Notes under the pieces: generated by a model
What the model saw: only the letters and a program-made list of their open reading frames with translations
Databases searched by the model: none
Told to the model about the DNA's origin: nothing
In this document: piece by piece, positions 4,971-48,794 of the stretch
Layout: each line of letters starts with the position of its first letter
Position numbering within the stretch: position 1 is the stretch's first letter
Made by a program: the position numbers and the translations under genes
Origin: a virus
Lineage: Duplodnaviria > Caudoviricetes
Virus record (IMG/VR): IMGVR_UViG_3300005077_000001
Location: 96,001-160,000 of that record
Strand: one strand, 5' to 3'
DNA length: 64,000 nt

Positions 4971-6050
4971 ATGATAGATTTGAGTATAGATACTTTAGTA
5001 CAGAAAATTGAAGAAATTTCCAGTGGAGAATGTGTAAGGCACATAGAGGCAAATGACTCTTATGTGCTTTATACCTATCCTAATAAATATCAATTTAAGC
5101 TTGCCGATATAAAAGAAAAACAAACATATAAATTAGCTACAGATGATGGTTTTCCAACTATAGAACAGATGGAAAAACGATTAAGAGAAGGGGGTTTGTG
5201 GACTGAAACACACGAGATTAAATCAGAGGATTTACGAAGTAAGATAAAAGGATTACGAGTAGTTAAAGATGACCCATCCCTCACAAAAACAGAAAATAGA
5301 AAACATATTTTACAGCAATCAATTAATAAATATGAAAAAGAATTATGGGAATTAGAGTATATAAAAGATAGTAAACTAGACGAAACAGTGGAGCGGAAAT
5401 CTCGTCGTATTAGATACGATTATTTATGTTGGTTATGCGCGTTTGATCCATTTTCTAAAGATAAATTTTGGGATAAGTCCTTTGATGAATATCAAATAAT
5501 AGAAAATATATTAAAAACAGAGGTTTTAACTAACTTTATACAATTTATAGGTGGTCATGAACAAGAAGAAATTAGGTATATAGCTCGTAGCACTTATTGG
5601 AAAGTAAATTACCTAGTTTCACAAAAAAGCAATTCTCCTCTATTTAGTCGGTCTGTGTATGAAATGACCCCTGACCAGCTCAATTTATGTTATTGGAGTC
5701 AGTTCTATCAAAACATAAATGAGATGATGCCAGAAGACAGACCAGATGATGAAACAATAGATAACGATGAGGCATTGGATAAATGGCTAGAGGAGTATCA
5801 CAGGAATAAAAGCGAAGAACGTAAATCAGCAAGGCTTTCCTCATTTGGATCTAGTTCGGCAATGAACCAAAAAGAAGTTTTGGTATTTAGATCCAATCCA
5901 AATTACGAGAAAATTGAATATGATGAGCCACCTTCTACAGAAGGTAAATTATCAGACAGTGACACAAAAGAAAGTATGGACAAAAAAGGTATGCGTCTTA
6001 GGAGATTAATAAGACAGAAAAAAATGGAGAAAAACAAGAAAACTGATTAA
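4971..6050 (+). CDS. Putative second tail assembly chaperone
   Basis: 359-aa helical ORF whose TAA overlaps the tape measure ATG; synteny. Confidence 0.5.
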   Translation: MIDLSIDTLVQKIEEISSGECVRHIEANDSYVLYTYPNKYQFKLADIKEKQTYKLATDDGFPTIEQMEKRLREGGLWTETHEIKSEDLRSKIKGLRVVKDDPSLTKTENRKHILQQSINKYEKELWELEYIKDSKLDETVERKSRRIRYDYLCWLCAFDPFSKDKFWDKSFDEYQIIENILKTEVLTNFIQFIGGHEQEEIRYIARSTYWKVNYLVSQKSNSPLFSRSVYEMTPDQLNLCYWSQFYQNINEMMPEDRPDDETIDNDEALDKWLEEYHRNKSEERKSARLSSFGSSSAMNQKEVLVFRSNPNYEKIEYDEPPSTEGKLSDSDTKESMDKKGMRLRRLIRQKKMEKNKKTD

Positions 6051-9000
6051 TGGCTGAAGATTATACGTTTAATATAAAAATCAATATAACTCCAGAGATA
6101 AATCAAAGCGAACTTGCCAAGTTGTCTTCTCTAGATAAACATCAAAAAGTTTCTACTACTGATATGATGGCTTTAAGACGTACTATTTCTGCTGATAAAC
6201 CGATTACTAAACAAACTGAAGATAAACTATTTGATCATATGTCCAAACTTGAACAGAGAATTGAGCAATTAAAGCAAACCAATGTACAATCCTATGCTCC
6301 TGTATCTAATATATCAATTCGGAATTCTATGGAATCCATAGAGAAAACAATAGATAAAGCTAATCGCTTAAATGAAAAGCTACTTAATTCACAAAAAGAA
6401 TTAGGTCAACAGTTCCATTCCTCTAAACAAATGTCAGAAGAGCTGCGAAGAAGCCTTGAACAGCAAAGACAAAAATTTGTAGACTACGTGAGATTAAATG
6501 AATCAATTACTAAACCCACTCAATTAACTACATTTGCTGGAGAAAGAATACAACTAAAACCAGAACGTCCTCTAAAACCAATGGTAGCTCCAGATATGTT
6601 TTCAAAAGAAATTGAAAAACAATTTCAAAATCTACTTACTACAGCTAAGCAAGATTTAGCCAAAGAAATATTAAAATTTAAATACGCTTTCAATGACAGG
6701 TTAGGAGATATTACTTCTTCTTTACAAGAGGTAGGGTATAGTTCTCATATGAAGGCATTGGATCAAGTAAATAAAGTAAAGGATTTACTAGATCAAGTTA
6801 CTAGTTCAGAAGATTTAAAAGTGGTCGTTGATAATTTTAAATCTAAATCTAAACAGATGCAAAAAGATATTGTTGATATGAGGTATATGATTGATAAAGC
6901 ATCTACTGATTTTGGTACAGAATTAGGTAAAGAGATAGATAATATAAGAAAATCTTTTCAGAATTTTTATAGGGATTTCGTATTTACATTTGGCAAACCT
7001 AACTTCTTTGAACCTGCTGGTCCTATGTTTAGGGATGTTGCTTCCCAATCTATGAGACGTGGAGAGCGTTCACCCATAGGGGGTAGATACGTTGGAGATC
7101 CTAGGATTAAGTTTGATCAGTATGGGGCGGCTCAATACAATATTACTGATGTTAAAGCTTTAGGTCAAACTTTATTGGATTTGTTAAAACCCAATTATTT
7201 AGCAAAAGCTTTTGATTTGAAAAATGTAGATAAAGCACTTCAGAATCAAATAAATGATTATTTCACTAAAAATAATATTTCTAAAAAACTAGAAACTTTA
7301 ATATCTTATAGTATTCCTGATTTAAAAAGTATACATCAGGATATAGTAGATACCATCTCCAAACACCTAGAAAAAACGATGGATAATGGTAAAATAAATA
7401 AGATGGTAGATAAATATATGCAAGATGTTTTATCTGCTACAGAAAAATCACTTAAAATACCTTCTATAGCTAAAAGTCCTAGGGGTGCTGGAATAATAAG
7501 AGATGTAGAACGTGGTGAATACCTCACTATGGGGCAGTATTTAAGTGTCCAACCTTCAATCAATAGGTTGTATGATCAATACATTAACCCAATGTTCAAG
7601 ATGCTGTCTCGTACAGGGATTGAACAATCTAAACTTCCACAAGACTTAAAAAATCTTAGAAAACTAGTAAAGGATTATTGGGCGAGATCTAAATCTTTTG
7701 AAGGAACTGAAGGGGTTGGGGTTGGTACAGAATTAGCTTCAGCCGAAATTATTGATAGGGTAAAGGGGTCTTTCAAGATGATGGAAGACTATTTGAAGAA
7801 AGAGAAAGGCTCAAAGTCTATAAGATATATTAATGAGATAGAGAAACTTCGTAATAATTTCATGGAAGAATATGACAAAGCATTAAGAGAGTCTATACGT
7901 ACTACGATGGAAAGAGTATTCAAAGAATCTTTGATTAGGGGAGATGTAAAACTTCCTTCAAATCTAGAAAAAAAATACAGGTCAGAACTACAACAATATA
8001 TAGGAAAGGGGGTTAGAACTTATTTATTACCAGATGATATTCAAAAAGTCATTAAAGATCATTCAAAAGAAATAGAGAAGAAAGTTAATGCCATTGGGAA
8101 TATTAATTTAGAAACTACTTTAAATAAGCTATCAAAAGAAGAGGAACGTATCTTTGGTAAAAATGATTATAGTGTTAGACCAAAACAAAGAGTAATGGAA
8201 GAATTTGGTAAGTATTACCCAACAGATGTATATAAACTGATGATGCAAGTAACGAGATCAATGCAAGGTCAATTAAATGAGTTACAAAAAATAAGGAATA
8301 GTTTATCAGCAGCAGGAAGTAAAGGTAATGACTCTTATTTTCGTGAATTATTAGAGCAACATTTTAGACGAGTATTTGATCCTGTAAAAGAACGTATTCC
8401 TGAAGAGCATGAAGCTATGCAGAAACACGAAGTATATGGTAGGTATCGTACTATTACTTTACAACCAAAACTTCCTAGCATTGCTGAAGGCGAATCTTCT
8501 TACGGAGTACCTGTCGATTTACAAGCAGAGCGTAGATTCATTGTTCAGAGAAATCTGGAAATGGAAGAGTTGTTTGAAAAAGAATATATAAGAGGTATTA
8601 AAGATTTAGAAAAAAGACTTGGTCCTACAATTAGAATGTTGTCTACCATTGGTCTTAATGAAGCAGCTGCAGCTGGTAAGAGGGTATTTGGTCAAGATTT
8701 TGGTAAAGAATTTTTAGAATCTTTTCTAAAAAATAGAAAAGTTCATCCTTTTTCTTCTTATGATCCAAGAGAAACGGAAGCTTTTGGACAATCTATTAAT
8801 CCATCAAGACCTACTGGTGCAGCATGGTTAAGTTTAGCGGGCCCAGAATTTAATGCTATTCGTTCTGCAAGATCACACCAGATGATTTCTCGTGGAGAGT
8901 GGGGCCCTTATGGTACTGGGCTTAATGTAGTAACAGCATTGAAAGACGTATCTCAAGGCTATGAAGATGTATTTGAAATTGGTAAAAGGTTAAAAGAAAT

Positions 9001-12000
9001 AGCTACTTTTAAATTTAAAAAAATGGTAGTTCCAAATCTGAAGGGTAATGAAGATGAATTAGTGAACAGTATTAAAAATTATTTAGAAACTGTTGGTTCT
9101 GATATATTTGGTAAACCAATTAAAATTAAAGAATTAGCTGATGAAGTCTTTGTTAAAGATATAGCCAAAAGATGGGCGAAGGGGAAAGAGGGGTCTATTG
9201 AAGAGAATGTGCTCACACTATTAGAATCTTTTGTGGGTCACGAGGCTAGGAAACTATCTACAGGCCAAGTTCTTAAAGGAGTAGGTGCTTCTATATTTAG
9301 CAAGTACGGTGATGATTTAGAACAATCAATAATCAATAAATTTGTTAAAGGAATGAAGCCGAGGATAAAATTTGGAGATGTTGGTATTTTAAAGGGAGTT
9401 CCTAAGTCGTTTGAAGAATTATTCACTGAGATTATCAATTCTTCTAGACTTAATTTAGATCCTGCCAAAATAGATAAGGCCAAAGAACTTATCAAAGGAA
9501 CTCAAAACTTACCAATGCTTTCTTCAAAACACTTATCACAGTTTAATGTTTATCCTGTTGAATACGGAACTGGTAAGATTATGGGAACCCAAGGTAGTTT
9601 ATCCTTAGAGCAAAGGAAAAAATACCTATTTGATATGCTAGGTATCCCAATGTCTGATATTAGTACAGCCAAATCTATTTCTAAGCAGATAGAACTACTT
9701 GGAAATGATATGCAAAAAGTAAGAGATTTATATAAATCTACAGTTGGTGGAGGCCTAACAAAGGATGTTCCAATTGATTTAAGAATAGCTGCTTCATCCA
9801 TTGGCAAAAAATCTCGTTTAATTGGTGGTAATGTTGCAGAAGTAATAGCTAATAATATAATTGGTAATATTCGTTCTGCTCCTTTACAAGGAGAAACCAT
9901 TGTAGATCAAATTATTCGTCAACCCTTGGCAAAAATTATTACTGATACAAAAGCAACAGGGGAAGATGCTCGTAAGCTAGCTTCTTTATATAAAGATGTT
10001 TTAGGTCTTCGTGGTAAATACGGGGAAGAGTTCTTATCAGAAAGTCAGGGTAGGGTTGAAAAGACCATGGCTGGTATGATGCATATGATGATCATGAAAG
10101 AACCTAAACAGTATATTCCTAAAGGAGCAGCAGAGATAGAAGCTGGTAGATCCAAATTAACTATAGATCCTCACGCTTGGGTAGGCTTAAAGAAATTATT
10201 CGATGAGGAAAATAGTGCATTATTAAAAGAAATAAATTTAAATTCTGTACCTGATGCTAGAACTGCTGGGGCTTTATTATCTTCGTTCAGGTCTTTTTCA
10301 AAAAAAAGAGAAGCAGAATTAATGGAAGAGCTATCAAAAAATAAGATTGGTTTGTTAAACCGAGAATCTCTATTAAACCCTAATTACACAAATTATGTTT
10401 CACCTTTAGAAAGAGGATCTTTAAGCGCTGATTTAGGAGGCACTATCTTTGATCCTATGCATTTACCAAAACCAATTCTTTTGGAAATGCCTAAACCTAA
10501 CGAAGAATTAAGAAAAAGAATAGAGAAAGATATAAAAAGGCGAATAGAAAATAGGGAACAGGCTCTTCCATTAAGAGACTATATCGAGATTCCTGAAATA
10601 TCTGGAAGACAAGTATTGGTAAATGAAACTGGAGAAGTTATGCCAACATCAACTTCTAGGTATATGTCTGAGCTAATAGAGTCTACTAGGAAATATCATC
10701 AATTGCAAGATGTGTCAAAAGATCCTAAAATTATGGACATACAGAGGAAAGCCCTAACTGATTTTATTAGTGATAGTTATAATCAGATTCACGCTGAACG
10801 TAATTTAGATATAAAGAAAAAAATGATTAAACATTTTGAAGATCAAGTTTTACCTGTTATTGGTTCTTTACCTATGCCCTTATATTCTTCTGAATCTAAT
10901 TTAATTTTAGGTAAAGAAGGACCAGAACTTCCAACTATATATTCTAGAGTTGGGGCGGATTCTAAAACTAAATTGGAAAAAGAAATATCGAAGGGTATCA
11001 CTATACAAGATGCATATAATAGATATATCACTAAAATTACAGAAGGAAGTGAAGCAAGTAGATTAAACTATATGGCTCGTTTCTTGAGAAATACAATTGC
11101 CAGCCCTGTAATCTACTCTAAATCTCCACAATTAATAGGTCAACAGGTTTCTAGGGAAATTTTACCAGAAGGAGATAAAGAATTTGTAACTAAAACACTG
11201 CTATCTGATAAAAATGTACAAAATTTAGTAACAAAATTTAGTGCACTTAAACCTGAGTATGATAAGAATAAACAACTGACTGGTTTGTATCCTCAAAATA
11301 TTATTGATGAGCAAGTTTTATTAGCTAGACGAAATGCTTATGATTTCTATCGTGAGTTAACAAATTCAATATTTGGTAAAAGTGGTGTTATTAGTGATAC
11401 TTTGCTTAAGAAGAAAGTGCCTGGACTATATTTGACTGCTCAATCAAGACCTTACGACCCTACTGATGCTATGAAATCAGGTGTTGAATTACTAAATAAA
11501 TATTCATCAGAAATAGAAAATTCTGATAAGCTAAAAGAAGATTTAAGGCAACAACTGGATGCTGTACAGAAATTTAAAAAGGAAAACCCTTTGGCTTGGA
11601 TTAAAAGAGATGAGGTCCGTATCGGAGAACGTGATTTACGGGAACTTCAAAAAGCAGGACAAGCCACACCAGAATTGCAAAAGCAAGTTAAAGATGTGTA
11701 TGCAATAATTCATAGACAACCTTCTACAGATGAGTTCAGTTTTAAATCTATGAAATTAAAAATAGATGATATGCAAAAGGATTTATCTGGAGTTGCAGTT
11801 GTTCCTGGATTACCTTTAGGCGACTATGACGCTATGAGAGCTATGGAAAATACCTATAAAGCACTTGAAGGAGTACGAAGTAAACAAACTAGCCAAGTAG
11901 AAGAACTTTATAAATTGGGAAAAACAGAAACTGATCCTGTGGTTAGGCGTCTCCGTAAAAGTATTGAAGAAATAGATAAAGCTGTAAGAGACTTAATACC

Positions 12001-15000
12001 TATATATCATGAGCAACAGCAGAATTTAGATTTTGATGGTGATATGATAGCTCTTCATGCTGCTACATTAAAGAATACTAATGATGAGTTGGAGAAAATT
12101 AATATAGAACAAACTCTCAGAACTGGGGATACAAGGAGATTCCTATATGAAGACTTCAGCAAAGTAATGGCAGAGAAATGGTCGCTAGGTAAAAAAGGAG
12201 ATAAACCGTCTGATGAGGAGTTAGCTGTATTTAAGAATTTTGCTCCGTCTTTATCCTCCCAATGGAATTCTATGGACGTAACTCAGCAATTTACCGATAA
12301 AGCTAAAAAGGACTTATTAAAATTTCATGGTACGGATGCTCCTACTGTGGCAGAAGATGCTTTGAAACACTTTGTTCATAAGATTGATATGGGCCAAGTT
12401 TACGAACAATTTAATAGGATTGGTTTATCTTATCGTGGATTAAGTGCAGAGGAAGCTGGACTTACTCCTAAAATGAGTGAAAATTATAATCTCCTATTAG
12501 CGGAATTTTTACGCTATGTAGTACAAAAGGCTATTGGAGGTAAACATGGATCAGAAGGAGCAGATTTAGCTCCTATGGTTCAAAAAGCGTTTTTCACAGG
12601 GAATTTGGATTTTCTGGCCGGTAAAGGAAAGAATGCTCTATTTGGAGAACAAGAAGAAGCCCTTACAAAGTATAGAATGAAGTATTTGAAACCGTTGTCA
12701 CTTGCTGAATTACAAAAAGAAGCAGAATCTTATGGTATTGATCCAGGAGTAAAAAATAGAGAGCAATTAATAAAAGAGATTGTTAAAAAAACATCTTTTA
12801 GATCTATGTTTGAGAACGTATTTGATACTATCAAAAGACTTACTTTAGCAAATATACGAGAATTATATGAAAAAGGAGCTATTGGAGACATATCATTATC
12901 TAAAAAAGGTAGATTAGGGACAGCAAAGTATCTGAGTGGCCAGTATAATAAATCTATAGATGAGCTATATGATACTTTGAAAGTTTCGTTTAAAGATGGT
13001 AACTTAAATATTACAATGGGTAATAAAGATATTACCCAAGATGTTATAAACCGTGTATCAAAGGATATTGGGGTAGAGTTATCACCAAAAGAGGCTGCTT
13101 TCAGATTAGCTGCTCATGGGGAAGGGTTATACAGCGCAATTGTAGGAGAACCTGGGAAAACGCAAAAACGTATATTAGATTACGGTCCTTCAACTTCCCA
13201 ACTATCAAAAGGATTACAGCCACTTTATGTTTTGAAAAGTTCTGGTGGTGCAGACTTAGCCACAAATAGATATCTAAAATATAAACCAGGGTTTACATCT
13301 GAATATATGCCTGGAGGTCCAGAAGCTGGATATGCTGAAATAGTAGATTCTATTTTAAGAAACAGAATGGGAGCAAATATCCCAATCGACGATGCGTTGG
13401 GTACTTTCAGCAAAATAGGAGGCTCCAAAAACTTTGTAAGTCCAGTTATTAAGATATATGATGAATTTAAAGATACCTATGATAAATTAATGTCAGTAAT
13501 GACAGATGATATCTATAAAATTGAAGGGTTAACAAAACAAACTAAATCTTTTAATAGAGAAATGGATGGATTTGCAGGTAATATGGCAAAAGCGGGGGTT
13601 AAAGCATTTTATAATAAAGAAGAGAACCAATTGTATTTATCTAGTCAAATTAAATCTGATTTTGATGAATCTCTCAATAAATATGCATTAGGTAAAACAG
13701 ATAAAGAAAAAGCCGAAGCCAGGGAATCATTAAGTAAGGCTGCACAAGAAATAAAAGAAGTTCTATCTTATGCTGCAGCACATAAATACATACAAGCAAG
13801 TAATTCAGATTTAGCTAATAGTATACGTGCTAACATAACTAAATATGCTGATCCAAAATCTAATCAATCACTGAAAGTGGATACTCTTATTGAACGATTG
13901 GTTTCTTTACATCAATATACTCCTATTATTGTTAAATGGTTAGAATTAATTGGTAAACCAGAATTAGTATCTCAACCAAAAATAACTATAGCTAGAGAAT
14001 TATCTAAGCATCCACAAATAAGAAAAGAAGCTTTAGAAGAAGAAGTAGCTTCCCTGTTAAGTGGAAGTGGAGGTTTTTCCACCGGTATATATCCGTTATT
14101 TAAATACAGAAAGAAGATAAACCCATTCAACGAGCTGCTATTTGGTTTAGCTAGTAAGCAGCCTGTTCAAATGCAAGCATTTTACCCATTGACCTCAGAA
14201 TCTTGGTCAAATAAAATGTCTGATATGCAATACAATCTTAATTCTGGAGAATGGTATGATATTTTTAAGGGTCACCCTTCTTTACGTGATATAGAATTAC
14301 CTTCTGGTATGACTTCTTACAAAGATGTGTTTTCTTTTTTACGGTCAATGAAAAAATACGGGGGATCAAAAGGAGCAACTCATTATTTAAATAGCATCAT
14401 AAAAGATCGTAACAGATCTTTATTAGAGAATATGGGAATTGGCATACCTGAAGATTGGGATAAAATGAGGCTATGGGCAACAGAACCTTTGGTACAAGGT
14501 GGAATAAGCGAGGCAGCTACTACTACTAGCTGGCCTTTTTTACCATACCCTAGTAATATAAAATTACCCATAGATACTCCCACTGGAAGAGCACGTCGCA
14601 GTATTGAATCCATATATAGTAAAGCATTTGATTTATCTAGAAAAGATTGGACAAATGTATTCAAAGATTTTGATAAACCACTAGCAGATGAAATTCAATC
14701 TTTACCAAAGGATACAAATGTGATAGAACATTTACAAGATACAGGGATGTATGGGCAAAATAAAGGATACACCAGATATATAAATATGATTTTCAAACGA
14801 AGAATGGAGCAGTTACTAAAATCATTAGGCGAAGAGGTTCCTGAATTTTATGACATGCGTTTTCAAAAAGCAAAACAAGAATTTTTAAAAGTATTGGAAA
14901 ATAGAGCAAAACAAGGGAAAGGTTTTGGTTGGTTATGGGGCCCATCCACTGGAGGAACTTGGGGCGGTGATAAGTTTGGCCCTGAAGAAGCATATGGGGA

Positions 15001-18000
15001 TAATCCTCCAGCAAACATAATTAAACGTTGGCAAATGCAGTCTTTTTCTCCTGCCGATTATCCTCACATTAAACCGATATTTGATTATCCTAAATTTTTA
15101 GAGACTGATGCTGCTCTTCAATATAAGAGTCATGGACATCAGATTAAGCTTAGTGCAGTTCCATTAAGATGGGGTAATATTGAGATTGGATATGGAACTA
15201 AAAATAAACCCTTAGACCCAGATAAAGCAAATGCCATTTATAAACCTTTCATTGAACAAGTTAATGAAGAATTAGTTCCTAAGCTAAAAGATAAGGTGAA
15301 AGAAATTCATCATAGGATTGATTTATTTGGAGAATGGGGCGGTAAAAAAGATAAGCTTTTGTGGTTTGATGCAAAAATTGGAAATAAACCATTATCAGTT
15401 GATCAATTTAAAGAACTAGCTTCAAGTCTTGGTTTAAAAACTCCTGATGAATTATACCGTGGGAAAGTAACTAAGCAAATAGTAGAAGATGTATTCAGAG
15501 AAAAACCTCCATTCACAGAGTTAGAGGAAGGTGTAGTTGCTAAGGCATTAGAACGTAAAAAAGGTGATTGGTATGACATGGCAAAGTTTAAAACTAAACC
15601 ATATCTAGTGAATGAAGAAAACAGATATCCTTGGTTTGATGAGAAGTCAGCTGGTGAAAATATTGAAAGAAAAATGAAGAAAGTTTTAGATTACCAGTTA
15701 AAAGCTTTTTCCCCATTAAGAAAACCCAAGGGGACTCAATTAGAAGAGGGTATGTATCCTGAGGAATGGCCCACAATTGAAGTATCCAAAAAGAGAGCAG
15801 AACAGTATTTAAAAGGGTTAGATGATAAGTTTTATCGGCCGGCTGAAGAAGCCAGTATGTATAAAAAGGGTACTGAATTTTTAGTAAAAGCGGCTGGTTT
15901 ATCTGATATACCTTCCGTTGTAAAAGATGCTGTTGTTTTATCTCAAGAAGAATTAAAGAATAGTATCTTTGGTAAAGATATGCCAAAATTACCATATGAC
16001 CCTGTGTTGGTATTGAATACAAGAAAACAAAAACCATTATATCCTGAAGCAGTACCTATTTCTAAAGAAGCAGGTTTTATGTTTCCAGAGACTTCAGAAC
16101 CTGGACAAGTAGGTAGATTCGTGCTCCATAAGCATGACGCATTAAGGGCAGGACCTCATCATGATTTAAGATTTGAAGTAGGAGGTCAATTACAATCTTT
16201 TGCTATACCACAACTAGTTCCAACTGATAAAGGCAAAATAAGATTAGCAATTGGTCCAACTGCTCACCATTCATTAGATTACTATGAAAAAGGAGATTAC
16301 GAAATTCCAAAAGGTTTTTATGGTGCTGGACGTATGCGTACAATGGATGTTGGTACAGCTGTATTAGAAAGCTTTAAACCAGATCATATTACTGTAAAAT
16401 TAACCGGGGTAAGAGGTTTAGCTGATGGTACATATTCACTAGTAAAATTTGATCCGAAAGGAGAGAAACCTAAACAACAGCAATGGTTATTTCAAAAAAT
16501 AAGAGATATAGAAGAGAGGGACCCTGTTAGATTTGCAGAAATATATACTGATAAAGTAGAAAAAGAACAGGATAAAACTTTAAATAAATTAGGGGATAAA
16601 TACAGAGACTTTCTTTCTCCTTTGACAAAATATGAAGAAAAAACATATTCTAATTATCCCACACTAGAGTTAGATTCTTATTTCAATGCTCCTGGACAAA
16701 TGAGGGGAAGGTATTCAAAAGGGAAAATACGAACAGGAAAACCTAGAAATATGGAAGAAATGAGGGCTCTCTTAGCTACTTATGACCACGAGGTTGGTCA
16801 TGCAGCTATAGAGAAATCCTATCCTGATATCGCTGAAAATATCATGTCTGGAAAAGCTGTATTTCCTGGTGTTCATATGGATAAGATTAGAGGCTATTTT
16901 GCAGCTAAATATGGGGGCGATAGAGGAGAAGGAGAAGATCCAGCAATTAAAGCTCTAGAAGAAGCAATTGCAGGTACCAGAGAAGAAGATCAAGATATTT
17001 TAAATGAACTTAGCAAATTACGGGATGAATCTTTTGGTAAAGCTGGAATGGTACCAATAGATCCTAATGCCCTCCAAGAACTAAAATATATCAGACGTTC
17101 TTTTAGTCCCACACAAAAACAAGATTTTGCTATTACAGTAGATTTAAATGATGATAAAGGAGCCCTCTCCTCTTTGAGTTCTTCCTTACAATCATTGGTC
17201 AGGCGATCAATATCAAAAGCTTATGGGCCATATGAGTTGCATGTAGATGCAGCATCTAGAGGTAATCCTGGGCCAGCGGGAGCTGGTGGTATAATAACAA
17301 GTCCTCGCGGAGGGGTTGTAACATCTTTTAGTAAACCAATCGGTGATATGACTAACAGCATGGCTGAGTATGTAGGATTAATTTTAGGATTACAAGAAGC
17401 GTATCAAAAAGGTATTCGTAGTTTAGAAGTTATTTCTGATTCTCAATCAATGGTTAATCAACTTCTAGGTACATATAAAACTAGAAGTCAAAATATTATT
17501 CCATTAAAAGCTAGGGTAGATCAAATTTCAAGTAAGTTTGGTAATGTGGATTTCCAATGGAAACCAAGAACCTTTCTTTCGGATGCAGATAAATTAGCTA
17601 ATGAGACTTTGGATTCTGCTCACAACAAAATTAATCCTGATGATGCAGTAAAGAGAGTAAAGAATTTAATAGATACTAAACAAATAAAGACTAATGATAC
17701 TCTTTTTAAAACTGCTTATTCAAAAGATAAGTACATGGATTACTTATCAAAAGGTTTTGCTGTGGGTATGCTAGCTAATGATGATATATATATGCCTTCA
17801 GGTATAGTAGAAAAGTTTAAAAAAGATTATTCTAAAAACACTCCTGATTTACAATCAGTATCAGAAGCTATACTTCGTACCTATTCTCATGAACGAACTC
17901 ATAAAGATATAAACACTGCTCCTTCTAATATCTACCGTAAATACAAATCTTTAGCAATTGACCCTCGATATTCAAATGCAATTGAATCCTTCATACATGA

Positions 18001-21000
18001 GGTAATACAAGGACCATCTAAGGATATATACTTAAGACAATTTGAAAGGGCTCAGATAAAATCTGGAGAACGACCTGGAGATTACGTATCTTCACCCGCT
18101 GCACGATGGGAAGCATTACAGGAATTAATTGCAGGACATCCTGAAATGAAATCTGCATCTGCTTATAATAAGGATATATCTTTAATAAGGTCTTCCTTTT
18201 ATAGAGATTTGAGTAGAGAAAGCATACAGCATTATGCTCCTGGGCGTAAAGCAAAAGAAAAACCTGATTTCAAATCAAAAGATTATATTAAAATGGTGGG
18301 AGCTAGTGCTGGTGGTTATGAAGTTGGTAATATTCTGTCTAGTATGCTCTCTCTAGATGATATCAAAAACTTATATAGCTTAATGAATGAGCTTACTGGG
18401 TTGGACCCTCTTAGAGTGAAAGGATCAGATCCTGAAAAATCTAAGAGCTTAAGAGACAAAATAGAAAAATTAAGAAGTATGACTGGTTCTAGAGGAGCAA
18501 TGCCTGGTGAAGAACAAGCTGCAAAAGAACGAATAAGGGTATTAGAAGAAAGACTTAAGGAACTTGGTGGTAATGAAAATAGATTGGAAACCCTGCATGG
18601 AATTACGTCTACTGCATTGCCTTTTGCTGGGGCTGCGATTGGAGCTGGCGTACAATATGCTACTACTGGGCTATTTTCAGAAAAAGGCATACCAAGGTCT
18701 TCCTGGGCTAATTTGGCAGCGGCTGGTGTTGGAAGTGTAGTTGGAGCTGGTGGTTTACCTTTATTGTTAAATAAACTTCCATGGGCTGTTCCACATCTAC
18801 CGTGGCACCTTATAGGAGCTGGGGCTGGAGCTTTAGGAGGGTATGGGCTATTACAACTTTATAGAAAATTATCTAATAAGCCAACTAAGCAGTCTTATGT
18901 ACCAACAAGTATAGGTACACCTATTGAAGGTAAACTAGGTTGGTCTACCGATAGTGGGTTTTTCAAAGTAGGAGCAGAAGGTTCAATAGGGTTACCTCCT
19001 CTTTTAGGAATGTCAGGGGATGAATATTTAGAGAAAGATATAAATACATTATTCAATCCAGAGGTTAGACAATCCCGTTTTGTTGGATTACCTCAAAGAC
19101 TAGTGGATCGTATAGATCCAAGAATTTCTGGATTACTGAGGTCTAGCTTGTCTTCAGATCAACTATTTAATATAGGAGCGAATGTAGGTGTTGGTCCAAT
19201 TAGTTTAGGATTTGAGTCAAATTTAGGATCTTATAATTTAGGTTCCTTACCTTATGAGTCTCGGCTTAAGCCACGTATTTCTTTACGAGAAAAAAACTTA
19301 GATGAATTTTCTACAGATTATTTAAATAGAAAACCAGGAATACATCCTCATTATAAGCAGGGTATTTCTTCTGCCTTGGAAATGATGTCTCCAATGGGTA
19401 GTTCTGATTTTCTTGATATTATACTATCTGGTACGGATATGCTAGATGATCTTCTATTACGCATGCCAAAATTAAAAGGACCCAAAGTTAAGCAGACGAA
19501 TAGAATATTTAATTTGACAAGAGATATAACTCCTGAAACTCCTATCAAAGAGCAAGCTCTATCTTTAAAAGAAGTACATGATCAATTAAGAAAAGGGTGG
19601 GTAGCAATAAAAGAAGGAATCGACCAATTTCCTGGTTCAACTTTAACTACTCCTAGCTTTTCTGTTTCTTCTATAAAAGATTTCTTTTCTAACCAATGGA
19701 AAGGTTTAAAAAATGCTATAAACACATTTTCTTCTTTTACTCCTACTAAGAATTTAAGGAATGAAATAAATAGTTTAAGATCTGGTCCTATAGATAATAC
19801 TATATTACAAAAAATAATAGGATTAGAAGAAGAGGTTATAGGTCGTAGAATTGGGATTTTAAAATCTATATCTTCATACAATCCTCGTCGTAGGGCTGAA
19901 TTAGAAAATATTTTTAAGTATGCTAATACTTTTAAACCAGGTTATCAATTTGATGTACAAGGTCCGGGTGGATGGGAAAAAATATTCTTTGAAGAATATC
20001 TTAAACGTGGTGGAAAAGAAACTAGTGAAGTCCATGTTGCTGCGAGAGAATTAAATAAAATGGGAATAAATAATTCTCAACAGCTAAGGGCGTTACAAAA
20101 CATAGTAGGTCCTGGAAAAGCATATGAAACAATTGAGAGTGTTACTCCTATTCCGGTAGGCCAAAGAGTTGCTAATGATGCATTTTCCTTAATAAAAACT
20201 GTTCCTAGTTCTATCAAAAATGCTGGTACATTTATGATTGATGCCTTTAAAGATATAGGAAGCTTTATTTCTACTTTTGTTAAAGGTAAAGATGCATCAG
20301 GCCAAGTATTTAATAGGTCAGCCTATTTTAGTAATGTAATTTCTGAATTACAAGATACTCCTGAAAGATATAGCACAATAACTGGAACTTTATTAAAGAA
20401 TCCAAAAGCCGATACAGTATATTCGCCAAAGATAATGGGACATTTAGTTGAATTAGCCAAATCATCAGTCTATAGGCCGTTAAATGCTCTAGGTATGGGA
20501 CTTGGAAAATTTATTGAACTAGATTTGGATAATAACATCGAGCCTGGAGTTAAAGGTCTATGGAAAAACTATATTACAAATCAATCTGGTGCGGATATTA
20601 AATCAGGATTAAATAGGCTATTCGGTTGGAAAGGCGGAGTAGTAAACACTACTACTGAAAATCTAAGAAATATAAAAGATTCTACTATTGGAGCAGCAAA
20701 GGTTTTTAGTAAAGAATATGGTCCTTCAAGAACTTGGGATTTATTAAAGAGCTTTTATACGGTTCCAGCTTATGGTGTTGGGGAGGCTATGCAAGGTGTT
20801 GGAGGAGCAATAAAAAGCGGTAATATACTAGATATTGCTAAGACTGTTGGATATACTGGTTTTCAAGCATTACCGTTCTTGGGGCATGTAGTATCTGGAG
20901 GATTTGAATTAAGAGACCAATTGCGACAAGGCCATAGATTAATTCCTTCTATAATTGGTACAAGTGCGAAAGAGTCAATTACTTATGGTACTACCGGCCT

Positions 21001-24000
21001 TGGTATGACCGCTGGAGAAGCTGTGATGAGGGCGCTATCTAATAGTATGGGCCCACGTGGTAAAGCGTTGATGTCTGTAGTAGGCTTGATTGGAGGGGGC
21101 ATTGCAGGAGGAGCATTCGGTGGTCGTATTGGGGGGATAGCTGAGAATTTGGTATTCAAACTTTTTGGTGAAAAACCTGATGACCACCAAAAAATACAAT
21201 CTTGGAAAGATCGTAAGAAGCAACTAGAAGATGAAAAGAATTCTTTAGTAGCAGTTACTCCAGATCGAAGCTATGCTCCAGTTTCTTCATTAGAAAGACC
21301 TTGGATAACTCCAGCAGAAATAAGAGGGTCTATTGCTCCCAATTTAGTAGGAAAACCACTAGATGCTTACATTAAATCTTTTAAGCAACTACAAGCAGAA
21401 GCATCAGAAAATATCCGAACTTCAGACGTTAATAAGTCTCAAAAGGCTTTAATAAAAACTACCTCAGATTTTTATTTAAACCGAGTGATAGAATCAAGAA
21501 ATGAACTAGAAGCCGCTGAAAATAACCAGTCTCCTAAATACGTTGTAGATCAGATTAAAAAGCAGATAGATGAATACATGATTAAATACGTATCTAATGT
21601 TATTAGTGCTTCTATGACTGGGGAAATCCACCCACTATCTGACCCATATAGGGTTAAAAAAACTGGAGGATTTGTTGGCGTAGATGATGCAAAAGCTGTG
21701 GCTTTAGGTAGGTCTCCTTCATTTGAAAAAGTTGTTAACCCGGAAAATTTCTATGTATCCGGTATGAGCAATTTATCTAAAAACATTATAGGTTCTATGA
21801 GAGATTTATCAGTATCCAACATTAGTCCTAACTCTGTATACAAAGAATTGATTAATACATTATTTACTACTTCTACAGATATCCCTAAAGATCTTTCAAA
21901 TATACATGCCTATTTAAAGATGTATACCTCTGAATTAGGGAAGAACCCTAACATTGATGTAAACAGATTGAGATATTGGAAGTCCTTAGAGGAATTATTT
22001 AGAACACCAGCAAAATCTATTAGACAGTATGGTAGATTTGATTTTCAAGGATTTGGGAGTATTGAATCTAATGCTCCAGTTGAAGAATTATCTCCTACTC
22101 AAAATCGTGGATCTAAATTTTGGAGAGGAATGTCTATATTTGGGGGTGCTTTGGTTGGGGCTAATGCTCTTGGGATGAATCCATTTGTGGCTCCTGTAGG
22201 AATGGTAGCGGGCGGTATATTTGGAAATTACCTATACAATAGACATCTTGCTAAAAAACAAAAACAAGAAGAAGAAGTAGTGGATGTTCAATCTAATGCT
22301 CCAGTTTCTGATACGAGATCTTATTTGAAATTAATATTAGGAGAATTAGCAGGAGCTAGTATAGGTGGCGTTCTAGCTGCTTTAGCTTCTGGAGGTAATC
22401 CTTTATTTACCAGTTTAGGTGCTGGAGTAGGTTTGTACGCTGGTAATAAGCTTACCAAGAAATATGTAATTCCACAAGAAATGGATATTCAATCAGCGGC
22501 TCCTATAAATATGGGCGGATTGCCTATCGATATGCAGTTTAAGCAAAATCAATTAATGCTTGATTACTACAAAAAAATGATAGCATCTAGTTCTTCTATT
22601 AAAGAAGGTACTATAATACCTATTGATCTAAAAGTTAAAGATGAGGCAGGTCAAGTACTTAGTAATATACGAGCAGATTTAAAGAAAACCTCAAATAGCG
22701 CAGAGGGGGTTATTACTACTTTTACAGATTTAAATAAAGTATTAGCTCAGAAAAATACGCTATGGGGTGCAATAGAACTAACTAGCCAATATGTTGCTGC
22801 TGGTGCTGGAGTAGGAGCAGTAATTAAAGAGTTTACAAATATGATTTCTACTATCACCAGTGTAGACGCAGCAATGTATGGTTTAGCACGCCTAATGGAC
22901 CCTGCAATATCAAATTTTGATAAATTAAGATCAGTTGCATTTGAAATGTCTAAACAATATGGAACTAGTATTGTTGAAGTCATTGAATCTATGAAAGTAT
23001 ATGGTCAGCAAGGTCTAAAGCAAGCTGAAATTATTGATATGACACGAGCTTCTATAATGATGGCAAATGTATCAGAAATGAAAGCTACAGAAGTAACTGA
23101 ATTGATGACTTCTGCCACTAAACAATTTGGAGATCAAGTAAGATCTACTATGGCATTTGTTGATGCATGGGTTAAAGTTGACACTGAGCATGCTATTACT
23201 TCACAACAATTAGGACAAGCATTATTACGAGTTGGTGCGGCGGCTAAAACTGCTGGTATGTCTTTTCATGAATTAAACGGTGTTGTTACTGCTATCGGAT
23301 CTGTAACTAGACAAACAGGTAGAGAGATAGGTACTTCGTTAAGATTCATTTTACGTAATATAGAAACTTCTGCAGTTAAAAATAAATTAAGAGATCTATT
23401 TCAAATTGATACCCTGTTGCCAAGTGGTGCTATAAAACCCGCATTTGCTCTGTTAGGGGAATTACAACAAAAATGGGGCACTATAACAAACGCTGAACAA
23501 ATGAATCTTGCTCAAATGATTGCTGGTGCAAGACACTACAATGCTTTTACTGTTTTAATGAATAATTTTCAAGAAGCTTTAGAAGCTACATCAGATTCTT
23601 TAAATTCAAAAGGTGATGCAGAAAAAAGAAATTACATTTTAATGCAAAGCTTAGAGAAAAAAATGCAGCAACTTCGTGGAGCAGCTAGTGAATTATATAC
23701 TGAATTCGGTAAATTAGCATTAGGACCAATGAAGTTCATGGCTGATTCAACAAAAGCTTTGATTGAGGGTTTTACTAGTTTACCTGATTCAATAAAAACA
23801 TCAGTTATGGCAATAGGTGCATTCACTGTTTATGCATCAAAAATAGAGAGAATTACTAGTATACTTGGAGGTATTGGTGAGGCAAGTGGTCTTTCTGGTA
23901 TTGTGAATACTTTTGGCCAATTCTCTATCAGTCCTATTTCTAGCATAATATATTCTTTTGATTCATTAAAAGGTGTTAATTCCTTAAGCCAAGTTAATAC

Positions 24001-27000
24001 AACTTTAGGAAAAATGCTTTTCCTAATAAAATCAGTAGCAGATAGCTTTCTTCATGCAGGAGCTTCTGCTTTTAGCTTCGTGCATACTGCTGCTAGATTA
24101 ACTTCCCTTTTTAGTATTGGGGCTTTCATTAGTAGCGGGTTTAATCCTACAGCTTTACTTCCTCTTCTTGTAACTAGAGGACCTGTACTCGGTTGGGGTG
24201 CTAGAAGGATGTCTAATCTGATGAATCAAGGTACTGAGGGGATACTAGAAAAAGTCTCTTCTCCTACTGGGTTATTAGGCATTGGCTTAACTTATGTCTT
24301 AACTAGGTTAGCAGGTTTAAATACTGGTATGCTAAGTAGAGAAGGGATGGGTATTGGTGATACTATTAAACAACTATTCATTGGACCAGAAGCTGAATTA
24401 AATAGATACAAAGAGCAAACTGTTCAAATAGGGGGAGCTTCTACTCGCATATCTTATCTAAGTGATGTGCTTAAATCTTATACTGCTCTCAAAGGTCAAT
24501 ACAAGTCTTTATCTGAAATAGGTGTAAAGTTAGGGACTCCTGAAGGCATTACTTCTGAGGCCGAGCGAACATTATCATCTTTTGGGGAAGAAACTGGATT
24601 TAAACCATACATGGTTCGCTTATATGAGTTTAATAAACTACAAGAGGAAGCTAAGAGAAAAGCTGGTTCTTTGATTCCTTCTTTAGTATCTGGATTTGAT
24701 TTGTTTGGTAATTCTATACTTCAAGTTAATAAAAATTTCCGTACTAACATAGAATCTATGGATGAGCTACTAAAGAAAATACAAGACTTTGAAAAGATAC
24801 ACCTTGCCGGATTACAAATAGATAAACTATTCCCCGAAGCCAGCTTTGGACAAACATTTAGAAATACTTTAAAAGGACTAGTTGGAACTTTACCTTTTAT
24901 GGGAGAAACTTGGGCTGAGAAAATATTCCCCGCTACACCATACCAAAAACAGCAATCTATTTTGAAAGATATATCACGTTATCAGGGTATGCAGAATGCT
25001 GCATTAGCGACTGGATTACCTGTGCCTCCTTTTATCACTGATACTTTAAAAAATCTTAATAATAAGTTAAAAATGGTTAATTCAGAATTAGATTCGGAAT
25101 TAGCAAAGATTAAAGATACTATTGCTGATCTTAATGTGAAGACTCCTAAAGAGGTACTATCCGTATTATCAGATACTAAATTCGGGAAATATTTAGAAGT
25201 ATATGGTGGAAGAAATATGGATGTGCTTAATGCGGTGGCTGGATATAGAGGTATTTCTACACGGGATCTACAGAAGCAGCTAGTTCAGGATACTACAAAG
25301 TATGAATATATGCATATTGATAAACAGCCTGGTATTGCAAGTATCTTATCATTTCCTGCTTTCTACGGATTTTCTAGAATTCTATCTAAAGTTGTAGAGC
25401 ATTTTACTTCTCTTTCACTAGCTTCTTCTAATTTAGGAAAAGCTCTATTGCTTGCAACATCTGCAGCCGCAAGTTACCATTTTTTTGGAACACCTGAACA
25501 TTATTCATTAATGAAAAGTAGACCAACAGTTGAAGATACTTTAACTCCAGCAATTAATAATGTTAAAAATTTATTACCGTATATTACAGCTATTGGAACA
25601 TACAAAGCATTAGGAGCTATAGGCGGAGGTGGAGGAACAATACCTCAAAGGATTGTGGGAGGATTAGCGAGATTAGGGGTATCCTACTATATGTATGGGG
25701 TGGGAGGGAGATTAGCAGAAGGGATACCAAATCTACCTACAGAATCAGATAGAGTAAGAGGTATTAAAAATGAAATAGCGCAACGTCAGGCTTGGGAATT
25801 AGCAATGGGTAAATTAGGTATTGCTAAAGAAGCCATATATGGGCCTCCAGGTACTTTAGGGGCTATGCTGCCATTAAATGTTATTGCTGCTCAAAACCCA
25901 CTAGGCAGGTATGCTGTTCGTACAACTGCTCTGAATGAAGAAGATAGAAAATTAGCTGAAAAAAGAATGTTTTCTGGTCCTGGTTGGAATGGTGGAGCCT
26001 ACGGGGTAGGTGCCGGATGGGTAGGCAAAGTATTAGAAGAAGAACTAAATAAGCTGTCAGGAGTATCTGAGGGTGATGTTGTCATGATGGCAGAACTCAC
26101 TGATGTGGCTAAGAAGAGAGAGAATATTGTAAATAATTTACTACCACTAATTTATAGACGTAATAAAGCAGGTGAAGTAGTTCCTACCGTACAAGCTCAA
26201 AGGGAAGGTGAAATTCAAGCTTCAGAAATACAAATAAAACCAGAAGATTTAAAATTTCTATATTCACGTGGCCCAGGAGCAGCAGTTGATATGCGTACGG
26301 CATATGATCAGTTGAGGCGTACCTTAATTGGTGGTGCTGGTGCTGGGAAATACTGGACTCTAAGTGGAGCAGAGAAATTACAAATGGGGGTAGATTTTAT
26401 TTGGCAAGTACATGGATATGACAAGGCTATCACAAATCTATCAAAAACTTCATTAGTTATACATGAAATAGAAAAACAATTACAGGCTTTTTCTAAAGAA
26501 CAAATAGAAACAGCTCGGGCTCAAAACGATTTAAACAAAGTAATGGACGTAATTTTTGAGCATCGCAAATTGACATTCTTAGTTAGAATGAACCAAGAAT
26601 GGGAGAACTTAAAGAACACTATTGGTGAAATAGATTTTAAACGTCAAATGAGCGATGTTGATGAGTTTGCTACTATGCTAGAAAAAAGAGCTGCTATTGG
26701 ATTAAAAAGCATTTCGGCTGGCTTACCTCCTCAGGTTCCAATGGTAGCAAGTTGGAGTCAACTATCTCCAGAAGAACAAAAGTCTGTTCTAAGTCCAGAG
26801 TATACAGGCACAGCAAAATTAGCATGGGAAGTACAAAAATATCAAACTGATACAGCAGCAAAACTAAGAGCTACTCTAAGAACTGAACAAACAGGGGTTG
26901 CTTTATATGAGCAATTGAAAGAGGATTTAGGGCCTAATCTGAATGTGGCATTAAGTGGTAGAACTAGAAGAGCCCTCCAAAGTGATTTTGGTAGTAAAGT

Positions 27001-30000
27001 ATCTCCAGATAGAGTTTTTTCTGAGATACAGAGAAATCTATTAAGTGCTAATCTAACGGAACAGATGAAAGTAAATCAAGGTGCTTTCAATCTGAGTAAT
27101 CAAGAATTAGTAAATACGGTAGCAACTAATATGTCTCAAGTACGTGAGATTCAGAAGAGAGTTGCGGAAGGAGCTAAAGATCCTAAGATACTTGAAATGG
27201 AAGCAGATCTAAGAACAAGAAATGCTCAGATGTGGGTTAATGAACTAAAAAATAGACAATCAGTTTCACCAGAGGATTTTTCAGGGGTTAGTAAAGAATT
27301 ACTTGAAGGTTTTATTCATGAAATGGAAACTGAGGCAAAAAAACCGTTACCCTTTAGCTGGTGGAGATTATTGAACCCATGGGCATCGAATGAACCTGCA
27401 ATGCAAGCACAGAAAGCTAAGGATTTATTAGCAGCTAGACCAGAATCTACTTTTGATAAACCTATTGAAATGTTGGGGTCTATAGCTAGTTTATGGGTTG
27501 GAGAAAAAGTAGCTGGATTAATGTTTAAGCAAACTGGTCCGGCTGGGCTAGAGCAATTAGTTAAAAATATGGATAAAAGTAAGACGTGGGAGAGGGAAGT
27601 TATGCTAACTCAATCCCAATTTTTACGAGATATAGCAGAAAACACAGGTAAATTAGCAGGGACTCCTTCTCAGTCATATGGGCCTGGTACAGTACCAGGA
27701 CGTGGAAGCTACTCAGTTTTAAGCTCAGGATTGCAATTAGCTGGAGCTACAGCGGGTGGTTTTCTACTTTATTCTCTTGGTCAGCGTTTATCACAATCTA
27801 CCAGTACTGTTGGTAGTGCAATTGGGTCTTTAATCAATTTATTATTTAAAACAGCTAATGCAACAGGTACTTTTGGTAAGTGGTTAGGAAGACTTGGTCC
27901 TATTATGTCTGGTTTAGCGACTGCATACGTAGCACACCAATCTGGCATTGGTAAAGTGGATTCACTTATTGGAGGTGCATTAAATGCAGGTTCTGCTGCA
28001 TTAGGAGGTATAGGCTTAGGATTAATACACCCTGCTTTAGCAATTCCTGGTGGAGTGCTTGGTAGCATGGTAGGTAGTGGTTTATCAGATCTTTATTATC
28101 GTATTAGAGGGTATGATTTAAATGCAATAAAGGGAGTCGAAGGACAAGCAGCTTCTCCTGGACAGGAGTTAACTAATCCATATGCAAATATGCAAAGCAT
28201 ACAAGCCAATGTGCCTGATAGTATGTATAGTACTTTGGCGCGTATCGCTACTACAGGACTTGTTGCGGGGGCAGTTAAATCTAATGTTTTTGATGTGTAT
28301 TCTGAATATCGTAAACGTGGGATGGAAGAAGAAGTTGGAGCATTCCAATTAACTGCTGTTGCTCAACTGATTGGTCGCGATAAAAATGTGAATACTAAAT
28401 TCAAAGAATTTATAGAGAGTAAAGACTTAAAAAATAAAGATGAGCTATCCAATTTTATTAAACAAGCCGAAAAAGAAATGGGTCTTGGTAAAGAACCAGC
28501 AAATAGAGAAAATTTTCAAACTGATTTACAAAAATTTATTAATAATCTAGTGTCACAATTAAAAGAAACTCCTGAATTTCTTAATGAATTTGCTGAATCT
28601 ATCTCTTTTACAATGGCTAAGATGAATGAGTTTGCTGAGGGACTTAGATCAGTATCAACTACTTTAGGTGGATTACATGCTATTTCTAGAACAGTTCCTT
28701 ATGAGTTGGAAGCTAATGCTCCTAGATTTGGTTTCTTAGCCGGTCGTGGTGGTCCTGAGATATCCAGAGAGAAAGAGTTATGGCAATTATCTCCTACCGA
28801 TCTTTTTAAGTTAAGAGATACACAAGGTTTATATACTAAATATGTAACAGTACAAAAACAATTATCTGAATCTGGTAATTCTTGGGTAAAAGCAGTAGAG
28901 GATTATAATAAACAACAACGGGATATGGCTGCTCCTATTTTAGGAATTAGATATGAACTAAATAAAACAAAAAGGAATGTAGATCCAAAATATAGAGAAT
29001 TCATAGATGATTTAGCTAAATTCGTTGAAAATCCAGATCGTAATAGAGCTGAAACCATAGATTTTAGAAAAAGAGCAGTTGAATTAGAAGAGGCCGGGAT
29101 CAAAATAAAAAGATATAATTTAACTTGGAATAAAATTATGGAGGGGCAATCTCCTCGTAAACAGTTTGAAGCTTATTTTTCTGAGGAATCAGCTAACACA
29201 AGAATAAAACAACTACAAGTAGAATCTGGTACAGCTTCTAATCCAGAACAAGCAAAAGAATATGCTGCAGCAGCTGAAAGATTACGTGCTGAAGTTGAAA
29301 CTAAAAAGAAAGAAGAAGGGCAAAGTCCGCTTAGTTTATTCAGAGATGTGATGGTTAATTTAGAAAAAGAAGGAGGATTACTCAATACAATAAAGAATGC
29401 TAAAGAGCAAACTCTTCAAATCACAAAAGCATATATAGATTTAAATACGCAAATAGATTCAGAAATATTAAAAACAGAGCATTTAAATAAACTATATACT
29501 ACTAGATATGAACTTTTACAATCTATAATTTCATTGAGGCCTGGGGGATCTATAATTGAAGAAATTAAACGGCAAGGGCCTCTATTTGGACCATTGGCAG
29601 GTACAACTCCTTGGTCACAAAATGTTATTCCAGAGAATCTTGGAAAACCTTTTTCTTATGAAAACTACATGTCAGTTCTTTATCCACAACTCTCTGAGGA
29701 AATGACTTCCATACAAAGAAGAAAAGACGCTATATCAAAAGCAATGCAAACAGCTGCTCAGGAATCAGAAAAAGCTCAAACTGGAGAAACATTTTATAGG
29801 GAAGCTTTATCCGCTGTTACTACTGGTAAAGGACCTATGGATATATTGCAATTACAACCTAAAGGTGCAATGCTGAAACAGGCCATTTTTGAAGATACTA
29901 AACGAATGCGGGAAGAGCTTAAAGAGTCTAAAGAAACTAAAAAAGACTATGAGAAACAAATGGCTGATCTTAAGATACCTGCTGGATTCAAAGAGAGTGA

Positions 30001-48034: not shown

Positions 48035-48781
48035 ATGAGCACATGTAATTGTTGCATAGTATATGATTTATCTGTATCAGAAGGTAATGCAATATTAACT
48101 GGAGTTAATTCTTTAAATATTGATACAAACCTTACCTTCGACTGGTGGGATGAGACAGATAATGAATGTAATCCATATAATACAAAATTAGATTTAATTG
48201 GCCCTGCTATTACTTCATTACAACTGACAGCACACCCATTTGATAATGATAGTATGGAAGAATACGGGTATACTATGGGATTCTCTTGTCCATTTGAATT
48301 ATCTGTTTCAATTGGATATAAATTTATTAATTCTTGTAATGAATGTGTGGATTGTATCGATCCTATAACCGGCGAAGTAATAGGAAGACGTAGAGGTCGT
48401 TGGATAGGTGTCCCCAATCGTAAGAGAGACATAAAAATAACTGGAAACATAGATGACATCCCTTCTTCATTAATGGAATTTGGAGATAGGTTATATAGAG
48501 TAAATAAACTCAATGTGCAAGCAGGACAGCAACCTTTTATTATACCTCCAATTACTTATGCCTATAAGAGTGTCAAATATAAAGGGGGCCCGTTGCTTGT
48601 GGATACAACACAGGATTTTGTGTACGAATTCAGTGTTAATTCTGAAAAATCCTGTCAAGGAATGTTAAAAGTAAATAATATTGAGGCATATCTCACTAAT
48701 TTTACTTGGAAATTTGAACCCCCAAATCCACCAACTTGTAACTATACCTTCAATTGGTATACTGCATTTTGTAACATTTAA
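48035..48781 (+). CDS. Cys-rich hypothetical tail-tip protein
   Basis: 248 aa, beta-rich, about 11 Cys; operon context. Confidence 0.4.
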   Translation: MSTCNCCIVYDLSVSEGNAILTGVNSLNIDTNLTFDWWDETDNECNPYNTKLDLIGPAITSLQLTAHPFDNDSMEEYGYTMGFSCPFELSVSIGYKFINSCNECVDCIDPITGEVIGRRRGRWIGVPNRKRDIKITGNIDDIPSSLMEFGDRLYRVNKLNVQAGQQPFIIPPITYAYKSVKYKGGPLLVDTTQDFVYEFSVNSEKSCQGMLKVNNIEAYLTNFTWKFEPPNPPTCNYTFNWYTAFCNI

Positions 48782-48794
48782 AAAGGAAGAGAAT

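Follow-up and report, generated by a model that had tools for sequence, protein, structure and literature searches.

The locus examined here raises the question of why an RNase HI domain should be built into the chain of a giant phage tail protein, and what it might do there. RNases H encoded by phages have so far been known as stand-alone replication enzymes, and delivery of an RNA polymerase through the tail has been described for one group of Thermus phages. The window, i.e., the whole stretch of 64,000 nucleotides that was analyzed (positions 96,001 to 160,000 of IMG/VR virus record IMGVR_UViG_3300005077_000001), comes from an uncultured jumbo phage whose 256,335-base record (G000) is 97% complete.

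The polymerase/tape-measure giant and its RNase H domain

A single open frame encodes a giant protein whose modules are arranged, from the N-terminus, as a two-barrel RNA polymerase, an RNA-ligase-family module (residues 3026-3180), a LigD 3'-phosphoesterase (residues 3360-3465), an HExxH module, and the RNase H, followed by a second HExxH module, predicted membrane segments, and a tape-measure core (Table 1). An earlier note had described an RNase HI fused, along with an RNAP, into an ejected protein, and the domain indeed occupies residues 3728-3855 of one 12,315-aa frame. A beta-type lysine motif of the polymerase was recognized by eye near nt 9251. The DxDGD polymerase and the tape-measure domain share this frame in a tail gene module, and the same layout is present in two related records, G001 and G007. 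Neither zincin-like module has a Pfam match, and a weak ESM Atlas lead connects them to an LPD23 cluster.

Table 1. Coordinates of the features discussed (window positions unless a record is named)
Feature	Position	Strand	Details
Probable tail tube gene, upstream of giant	2147..3886	+	ESM Atlas structure matches
Giant ORF (RNA polymerase, enzyme cassettes, tape measure)	6050..42997	+	Single open frame, 12,315 aa
DFDGD motif of two-barrel RNA polymerase	12029..12043	+	Residue 1994; DxDGD kept in orthologues and distant relatives
RNA-ligase-family (Rnl2-like) adenylyltransferase module	15056..15634	+	Pfam RNA_ligase E 9.4e-08; conserved motifs
LigD-type 3'-phosphoesterase module	16118..16534	+	Pfam LigD_N E 2.1e-14; TIGR02777 E 1.3e-19
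Zincin-like module 1	16682..17098	+	HExxH at 16787 (residue 3580)
Junction tetrapeptide SFSP, pattern [SAG][FY][SAVT]P	17099..17110	+	Between zincin 1 and RNase H; residue 3684
Insertion of ~36 residues before RNase H	17120..17227	+	This phage only
Archaeal-type RNase HI domain	17231..17614	+	Residues 3728-3855 of giant
Active-site codons	17246..17590	+	D3733 (17246), E3773 (17366), D3797 (17438), R3840 (17567), D3847 (17588)
Remodelled DNA-strand-reading positions	17351..17449	+	T-N-S 3768-3770, not T-N-N; S3800, not Leu
L3843 replacing near-invariant Asn	17576..17578	+	Four residues before last Asp; only this phage's copy
Zincin-like module 2	17657..18229	+	HExxH at 17888 (residue 3947); conserved in orthologues
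Tape-measure core, PhageMin_Tail	22937..23527	+	Residues 5630-5826; Pfam PF10145 E 9.5e-27
Stand-alone RNase HI-like gene	G000:C1:252751-253296 = L001:8751-9296	-	RVT_3 E 8e-10
Two RNase HII genes	G000:C1:213620-214294 and 239859-240509	+	One intact DEAG; one SHAG
Orthologue L010	JGI 3300066658		Spans region
Orthologue L013/G001			211 kb; giant 13,616 aa
Orthologue L017			82-kb contig
Orthologue L108/G007			545 kb, complete; giant about 14,711 aa

The tail tube candidate matches the Phi812 tail tube and Phage_tube_2 clusters (TM 0.80-0.86 by target), and no sheath family match was found; a long non-contractile tail fits both observations. If the giant were stretched out completely, the P23-45 ratio would put the tail length near 2 micrometres. 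Considering the tape-measure domain, the upstream tail tube gene, the lack of a sheath match, and the precedent of P23-45 gp96, the giant would be packed and ejected, and the RNase H is probably injected along with the phage DNA. The tail module has also received an RRXRR-HNH (IscB-like) gene (45704-46927, +). A LAGLIDADG homing-endonuclease-like gene with Myb-like repeats is located at 48681-49889 (+), and several ORFs with comparable Myb repeats are scattered over the genome.

Pfam RVT_3 matches residues 3732-3852 with 77.3 bits (E = 1.3e-21; cut-off 21.6 bits), which is far beyond chance for an RNase H match, and PHROG 531 matches with E = 6.8e-14; the isolated domain stays below the NCBIfam equivalog cut-offs, which apply to whole proteins (111.5 vs 326, 88.5 vs 300, and 76.8 vs 140). 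Its best PDB relatives are the N-domain of Rv2228c (3HST, E = 1.9e-24), Halobacterium RNase H1 (4E19), and LC11-RNase H1, to which it aligns nearly without gaps (gap-free in the case of 4E19). The four acidic residues reported in the earlier note were confirmed as D3733, E3773, D3797, and D3847, aligning with the DEDD core of 3HST and 4E19, and the DxASRGNPGPAG-type N-terminal motif is likewise present. R3840 is the subtype Arg, found in 100% of the cellular comparison set and in 5/5 fused copies; in the archaeal-type subfamily, this conserved Arg replaces the active-site His (PMC4408406). An AlphaFold (AF2) model of the domain has a pLDDT of 96.6 (a five-module model is poor, with a pLDDT of 51) and superimposes on 4E19 with TM 0.95 and rmsd 0.7 A, compared with TM 0.72-0.78 for E. 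coli RNase HI. Both the model and the alignment to 4E19 indicate an RNase H fold without the basic protrusion, as described for archaeal-type RNases HI (PMC9719913). Based on its catalytic set, Arg, and modelled fold, the domain is an archaeal-type RNase HI that is predicted to be catalytically complete.

Conservation, origin and remodelled positions

Relatives of the giant were retrieved using the polymerase region together with a degenerate DNA pattern. Pattern scans built from one or two sequences returned nothing from viral, metagenome, or genome contigs, and protein searches with the RNase H domain (limited to 2,000 residues) gave only cellular-type relatives of up to 45% identity. In the phage collection, the cassette was absent from cultured phages apart from one weak unannotated match, and the cassette region yielded no P23-45-like record. 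In all five giants that span the region, the RNase H occupies the same site, with the first HExxH module directly adjoining it on the upstream side; the stretch downstream of it ranges from 101 to 1,801 residues. The five active-site residues are invariant in all five copies, compared with 31/130 invariant columns overall (hypergeometric p = 6e-4, relatedness not modelled). L013 and L010 share 77% identity in the RNase H, which is as conserved as the polymerase beta region; since synonymous sites are saturated in this pair, the domain is under selection, and pN 0.14 versus pS 0.90 rules out a neutral passenger. More distant polymerase-family proteins contained no RNase H, which is weak evidence as some may be fragments.

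Several further features distinguish individual giants. In L010, a frame change near residue 2635 (L010:6694-6721; assembly error or real) interrupts the giant, and an extra stretch of approximately 1,700 residues, which contains internal repeats, follows the RNase H. An insert following the RNase H in G001 (L013:16190-17050) resembles a GNAT acetyltransferase fold by eye, without Pfam support. The ligase and phosphoesterase of the present phage (15056-16534) share 55-72% identity with their orthologues versus 38-52% for the flanking regions, which suggests module exchange or stronger constraint.

A single capture by an ancestor of this jumbo-phage lineage is probable, judging from sequence trees. 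In a five-copy tree, the fused domains fall on one side of a branch with 91/80 support (not starred), recovered in 94% of bootstrap trees, and the present copy is the deepest, with a branch of 1.26 versus 0.11-0.57 in the others. The same grouping appears in a four-copy tree with 79/37 (not starred). A first, quick tree placed this copy apart from the other fused copies; the two careful trees group them. The earlier note had suggested that the domain may hint at the host lineage, a proposal that the phylogeny did not bear out: none of the three trees contains a supported cellular sister of the fused domains, an Actinomycetes clade (100/98) excludes them, the single archaeal row is placed elsewhere, and the best cellular matches (36-46%) span Actinomycetota, Acidobacteriota, Myxococcota, Chloroflexota, Patescibacteria, and others. 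Here, "archaeal-type" denotes the subfamily and gives no clue to the host; the replication proteins of the phage (DnaB, DnaG, beta clamp, RecA, and PolA) are of bacterial type. Origin by duplication of the phage's own stand-alone RNase HI was rejected on account of its 19% identity to the fused domain and very long branch. Stand-alone RNase HI genes at L107:9108 and L110:2427 (-) have the Asp-Ala start in common with the fused copies and keep TNN; that of L110 groups in the tree with a Methanomassiliicoccaceae protein (99/88) and stays apart from the fused domains.

Positions that read the DNA strand are remodelled in the fused copies. They were compared with 104 cellular relatives chosen by the N-terminal motif, a choice that biases the figure for Gly and leaves those for Asn and Leu unselected. 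The Gly after the first Asp is replaced by Ala in all fused copies (A3734 here). The second Asn of TNN, present in 100% of the cellular relatives, is absent from 5/5 fused copies (Ser at S3770 here, Met in the other four), while the Thr is kept in 4/5. The Leu following the third acidic residue is found in 99% of the cellular relatives, versus Ser or Val in 5/5 fused copies; this position presumably stacks on deoxyribose in human RNase H1. The late Asn that has become L3843 is retained in 98% of cellular relatives and in all four orthologues. Thr43 and Asn45 are phosphate-pocket residues that anchor the DNA strand (PMC2582618; for the pocket, see also PMC9719913), and the importance of the lost Leu and late Asn is suggested by their conservation. 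At the residue level, the fused domain appears to depart from a canonical hybrid-specific RNase H in two tests of conservation, i.e., the phosphate pocket and the late Asn. Within the subfamily, Sulfolobus RNase HI also cuts dsRNA and the Halobacterium enzyme cuts RNA-DNA junctions (PMC9719913). With the DNA-strand-reading residues remodelled and subfamily members cutting dsRNA or RNA-DNA junctions, hybrid specificity cannot be assumed.

The border between the first zincin and the RNase H is marked by a tetrapeptide whose pattern recurs at module borders, with 8 copies in this giant, 11 in G001, 10 in L017, and 7 in L010, although its enrichment in these four sequences is inflated because the pattern was picked after viewing them. 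In a held-out stretch of G007, 8 copies were observed versus 0.73 expected (0/2,000 shuffles). A copy or near-copy lies on both sides of the RNase H in G001, G007, and L010; in the present phage, the upstream one is exact and the downstream one degenerate. Considering that the tape measures of T5 and lambda are cut during assembly (PMC10038345) and that two HExxH modules flank the RNase H, its release as a free enzyme at this motif is plausible; alternatively, the motif could simply link modules or be left over from their shuffling. Another junction word, aromatic-x-G-x-x-S-L, is not found next to the RNase H, nor does it occur in G001. The insertion that separates the tetrapeptide from the RNase H is rich in Ser and Leu and does not match the tape-measure start.

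Candidate roles of the fused enzyme

This genome also encodes separate RNases H. The stand-alone RNase HI-like protein has the acidic residues, Arg, and late Asn by eye, with a pI of 9.8 over the domain, and the SHAG-containing RNase HII-like protein, which is without the first two acidic residues, is probably inactive. In the complete 545-kb relative, RVT_3 matches two more sequences apart from the giant, both stand-alone and RNase HI-like. In the whole records of G000, G001, and G007, nothing matched the families of ATP-dependent DNA ligases or 5'-3' exonucleases, nor was an NAD ligase found in G000 or G001; PolA of G000 consists only of 3'-5' exonuclease and polymerase domains, without a 5' nuclease domain. 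Given the separate RNase HI-like and RNase HII genes, routine primer removal needs no fused copy, which most likely does something that only a particle-borne enzyme can, namely an entry-stage job. The same genome carries an EcoO109I-family type II restriction endonuclease gene (G000:C1:239138-239878, +), preceded by an ORF that is DNA methyltransferase-like by its first residues. In L014, L015, and L016, LigD-type phosphoesterase matches (around 10001-10400) lie outside any giant ORF. PADLOC returned no match.

The leading explanation, which we put forward tentatively and at somewhat less than even odds, is that the fused RNase H is delivered with the DNA and cuts hybrid RNA on the entering genome while the first transcripts are made. 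An archaeal-type RNase HI, captured once and kept as a cassette in the N-terminal cargo of the giant, would enter the cell with the phage DNA; the virion polymerase would produce the first transcripts on the entering genome, and the RNase H, perhaps set free at the recurring junction motif, would cut the RNA strand of hybrids on this newly entered DNA. Such a role is consistent with the fold and active site, the fixed position after polymerase, phosphoesterase, and zincin, the conservation under selection, the probable single origin, the location of all predicted membrane segments from residue 4222 onward, and the precedent of a tail-delivered polymerase in P23-45 gp96 (PMC10770324). However, RNase H was not seen in distant polymerase relatives and is not reported for gp96, so that such a polymerase can work without one; hosts normally own an RNase H; approximately 1,700 residues and three modules separate the polymerase motif from the RNase H; and with the pocket Asn and the Leu lost in all copies and a further Asn lost here, hybrids may not be the substrate. 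The R-loop clearing proposed in the earlier note holds to the extent that hybrid clearing at DNA entry is the most likely job, but the hybrid specificity it implies cannot be taken from a remodelled pocket. This same remodelling in 5/5 copies with an invariant catalytic set would suit an injected ribonuclease whose substrate is host RNA, double-stranded or structured, rather than hybrids, for shut-off or for removal of regulatory or defence RNAs. Besides Sulfolobus RNase HI, the RNase H family includes soybean Rsv4, which acts on dsRNA only (PMC6764979), and the cargo region is modular and swappable, like injected effectors. Such a shift is nevertheless unlikely, as the fold is near-superimposable on hybrid-cutting enzymes (TM 0.94-0.95), few copies would be delivered per particle (the T5 tape measure is a trimer, PMC10038345), and no target is indicated. 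A somewhat better, though still doubtful, prospect is that RNase H, 3'-phosphoesterase, and Rnl2-like ligase act together, trimming hybrid RNA tracts and sealing nicks in order to repair or join the entering genome or to repair cut RNA. The three modules lie within approximately 850 residues in 4/5 giants, the phosphoesterase is kept in 5/5, RNase H1 leaves 3'-OH/5'-phosphate ends and some members cut RNA-DNA junctions (PMC4423430), and the related virus records searched contain no separate DNA ligase or 5'-3' exonuclease. On the other hand, the RNase H of L010 is highly conserved even though that giant has lost the ligase, a zincin lies between phosphoesterase and RNase H, and this phage's share of branch length (0.23-0.28 for ligase and phosphoesterase versus 0.52 for RNase H) is as expected for independently shuffled modules. 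A more elaborate version, improbable in our view, would have the virion polymerase lay RNA on the entering DNA, RNase H and phosphoesterase trim it, and the ligase seal it, amounting to RNA-patch repair or joining of the genome prior to the expression of any phage gene.

The remaining readings have still lower probability. Destruction of retron msDNA hybrids or CRISPR R-loops, as the earlier note had proposed, would profit from delivery at entry, when counter-defence matters, and the phage protein Rad does block retrons by degrading their RNA (bioRxiv 10.1101/2023.03.15.532788). Rad, however, is a 189-aa protein of primase/TOPRIM type and not an RNase HI, whereas the present domain is an RNase HI by profile and fold with no TOPRIM match; moreover, msDNA maturation normally involves digestion by RNase H (same source), and msDNA decay activates retron Eco2 (PMC12916289). 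The strong conservation across lineages is unlike a fast arms race. Guide:DNA hybrids are enclosed by Cas proteins, which counts against an anti-CRISPR function. An anti-defence role is thus unsupported and has only a slim chance of being correct. Equally slim is the chance that the family domain is active and the copy of this phage weakened or decaying: it has the longest branch of the five, the loss of Asn at 3843 and the upstream insertion are unique to it, and the stand-alone RNase HI-like gene could cover for it, but the glycine-rich loop is intact, as are the five active-site residues, model confidence is high, and this phage's share of branch length in the RNase H (0.52) is close to that in the polymerase (0.47-0.48). 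Least probable of all is a late cytoplasmic role, in which the cassette, made with the tail genes, would remove primers during genome replication. The missing 5' nuclease domain of PolA, the lack of 5'-3' exonuclease and DNA ligase matches, and the junction-cutting ability of the subfamily would suit it; an intact RNase HII and the stand-alone RNase HI-like gene are nevertheless present, fusion to a structural ruler is a poor supply route for a replication enzyme, and host PolI and ligase can serve.

Comparison with known systems

Archaeal-type RNases HI (4E19, 3HST, LC11-RNase H1 in 3U3G/4H8K, and S. tokodaii RNase HI in 2EHG) have the same fold as the phage domain (TM 0.85-0.95), as well as the DEDD set, Arg in place of His, no basic protrusion, and the N-terminal glycine-rich motif. 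The cellular enzymes are small, occurring alone or fused to a phosphatase, whereas the phage domain lies inside a tail protein of over twelve thousand residues and, unlike them, has lost the second Asn of TNN, the Leu, and, in this copy, the late Asn. The closest parallel to the giant itself is gp96 of Thermus phage P23-45, which likewise combines an N-terminal two-barrel DFDGD polymerase, a metallopeptidase, and membrane segments in one tape measure, with the polymerase present in virions as part of the full-size protein (PMC10770324). gp96 has 5,002 aa and no reported RNase H, ligase, or phosphoesterase; the present giant is 2.5 times longer. Polyvalent proteins of phages and conjugative elements, which are thought to be delivered with DNA, are also huge chains with swappable enzyme modules and zincin-like domains (PMC5512222). 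Similar traits may be present here in the two HExxH modules flanking the RNase H (zincins without a Pfam match) and in the variation of modules among orthologues, but the survey of polyvalent proteins contains 0 occurrences of RNase H and of tape measure proteins (PMC5512222).

Stand-alone RNase H1 proteins of jumbo phages (PMC7824862; PHROG 531) are also phage-encoded type 1 enzymes, but they are only free proteins assigned to primer removal, whereas a fused copy exists here in addition to free genes. Retroviral reverse transcriptase resembles the giant in carrying a polymerase-fused RNase H in the virion with an altered DNA-strand grip (PMC2582618). The retroviral RNase H, however, is of the His subtype and is attached to a DNA polymerase that makes a product from which RNA has to be removed, while the partner in this dsDNA phage is a distant RNA polymerase module in the same chain. 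No description of a virion-fused RNase H was found in the literature searched.

A natural variant that has the catalytic set without the DNA-strand pocket would provide a direct test of RNase H hybrid specificity, and the domain is small and easy to express. If the favoured explanation is true, some jumbo phages would inject an enzyme that deals with RNA:DNA hybrids as early as the first minute of infection.
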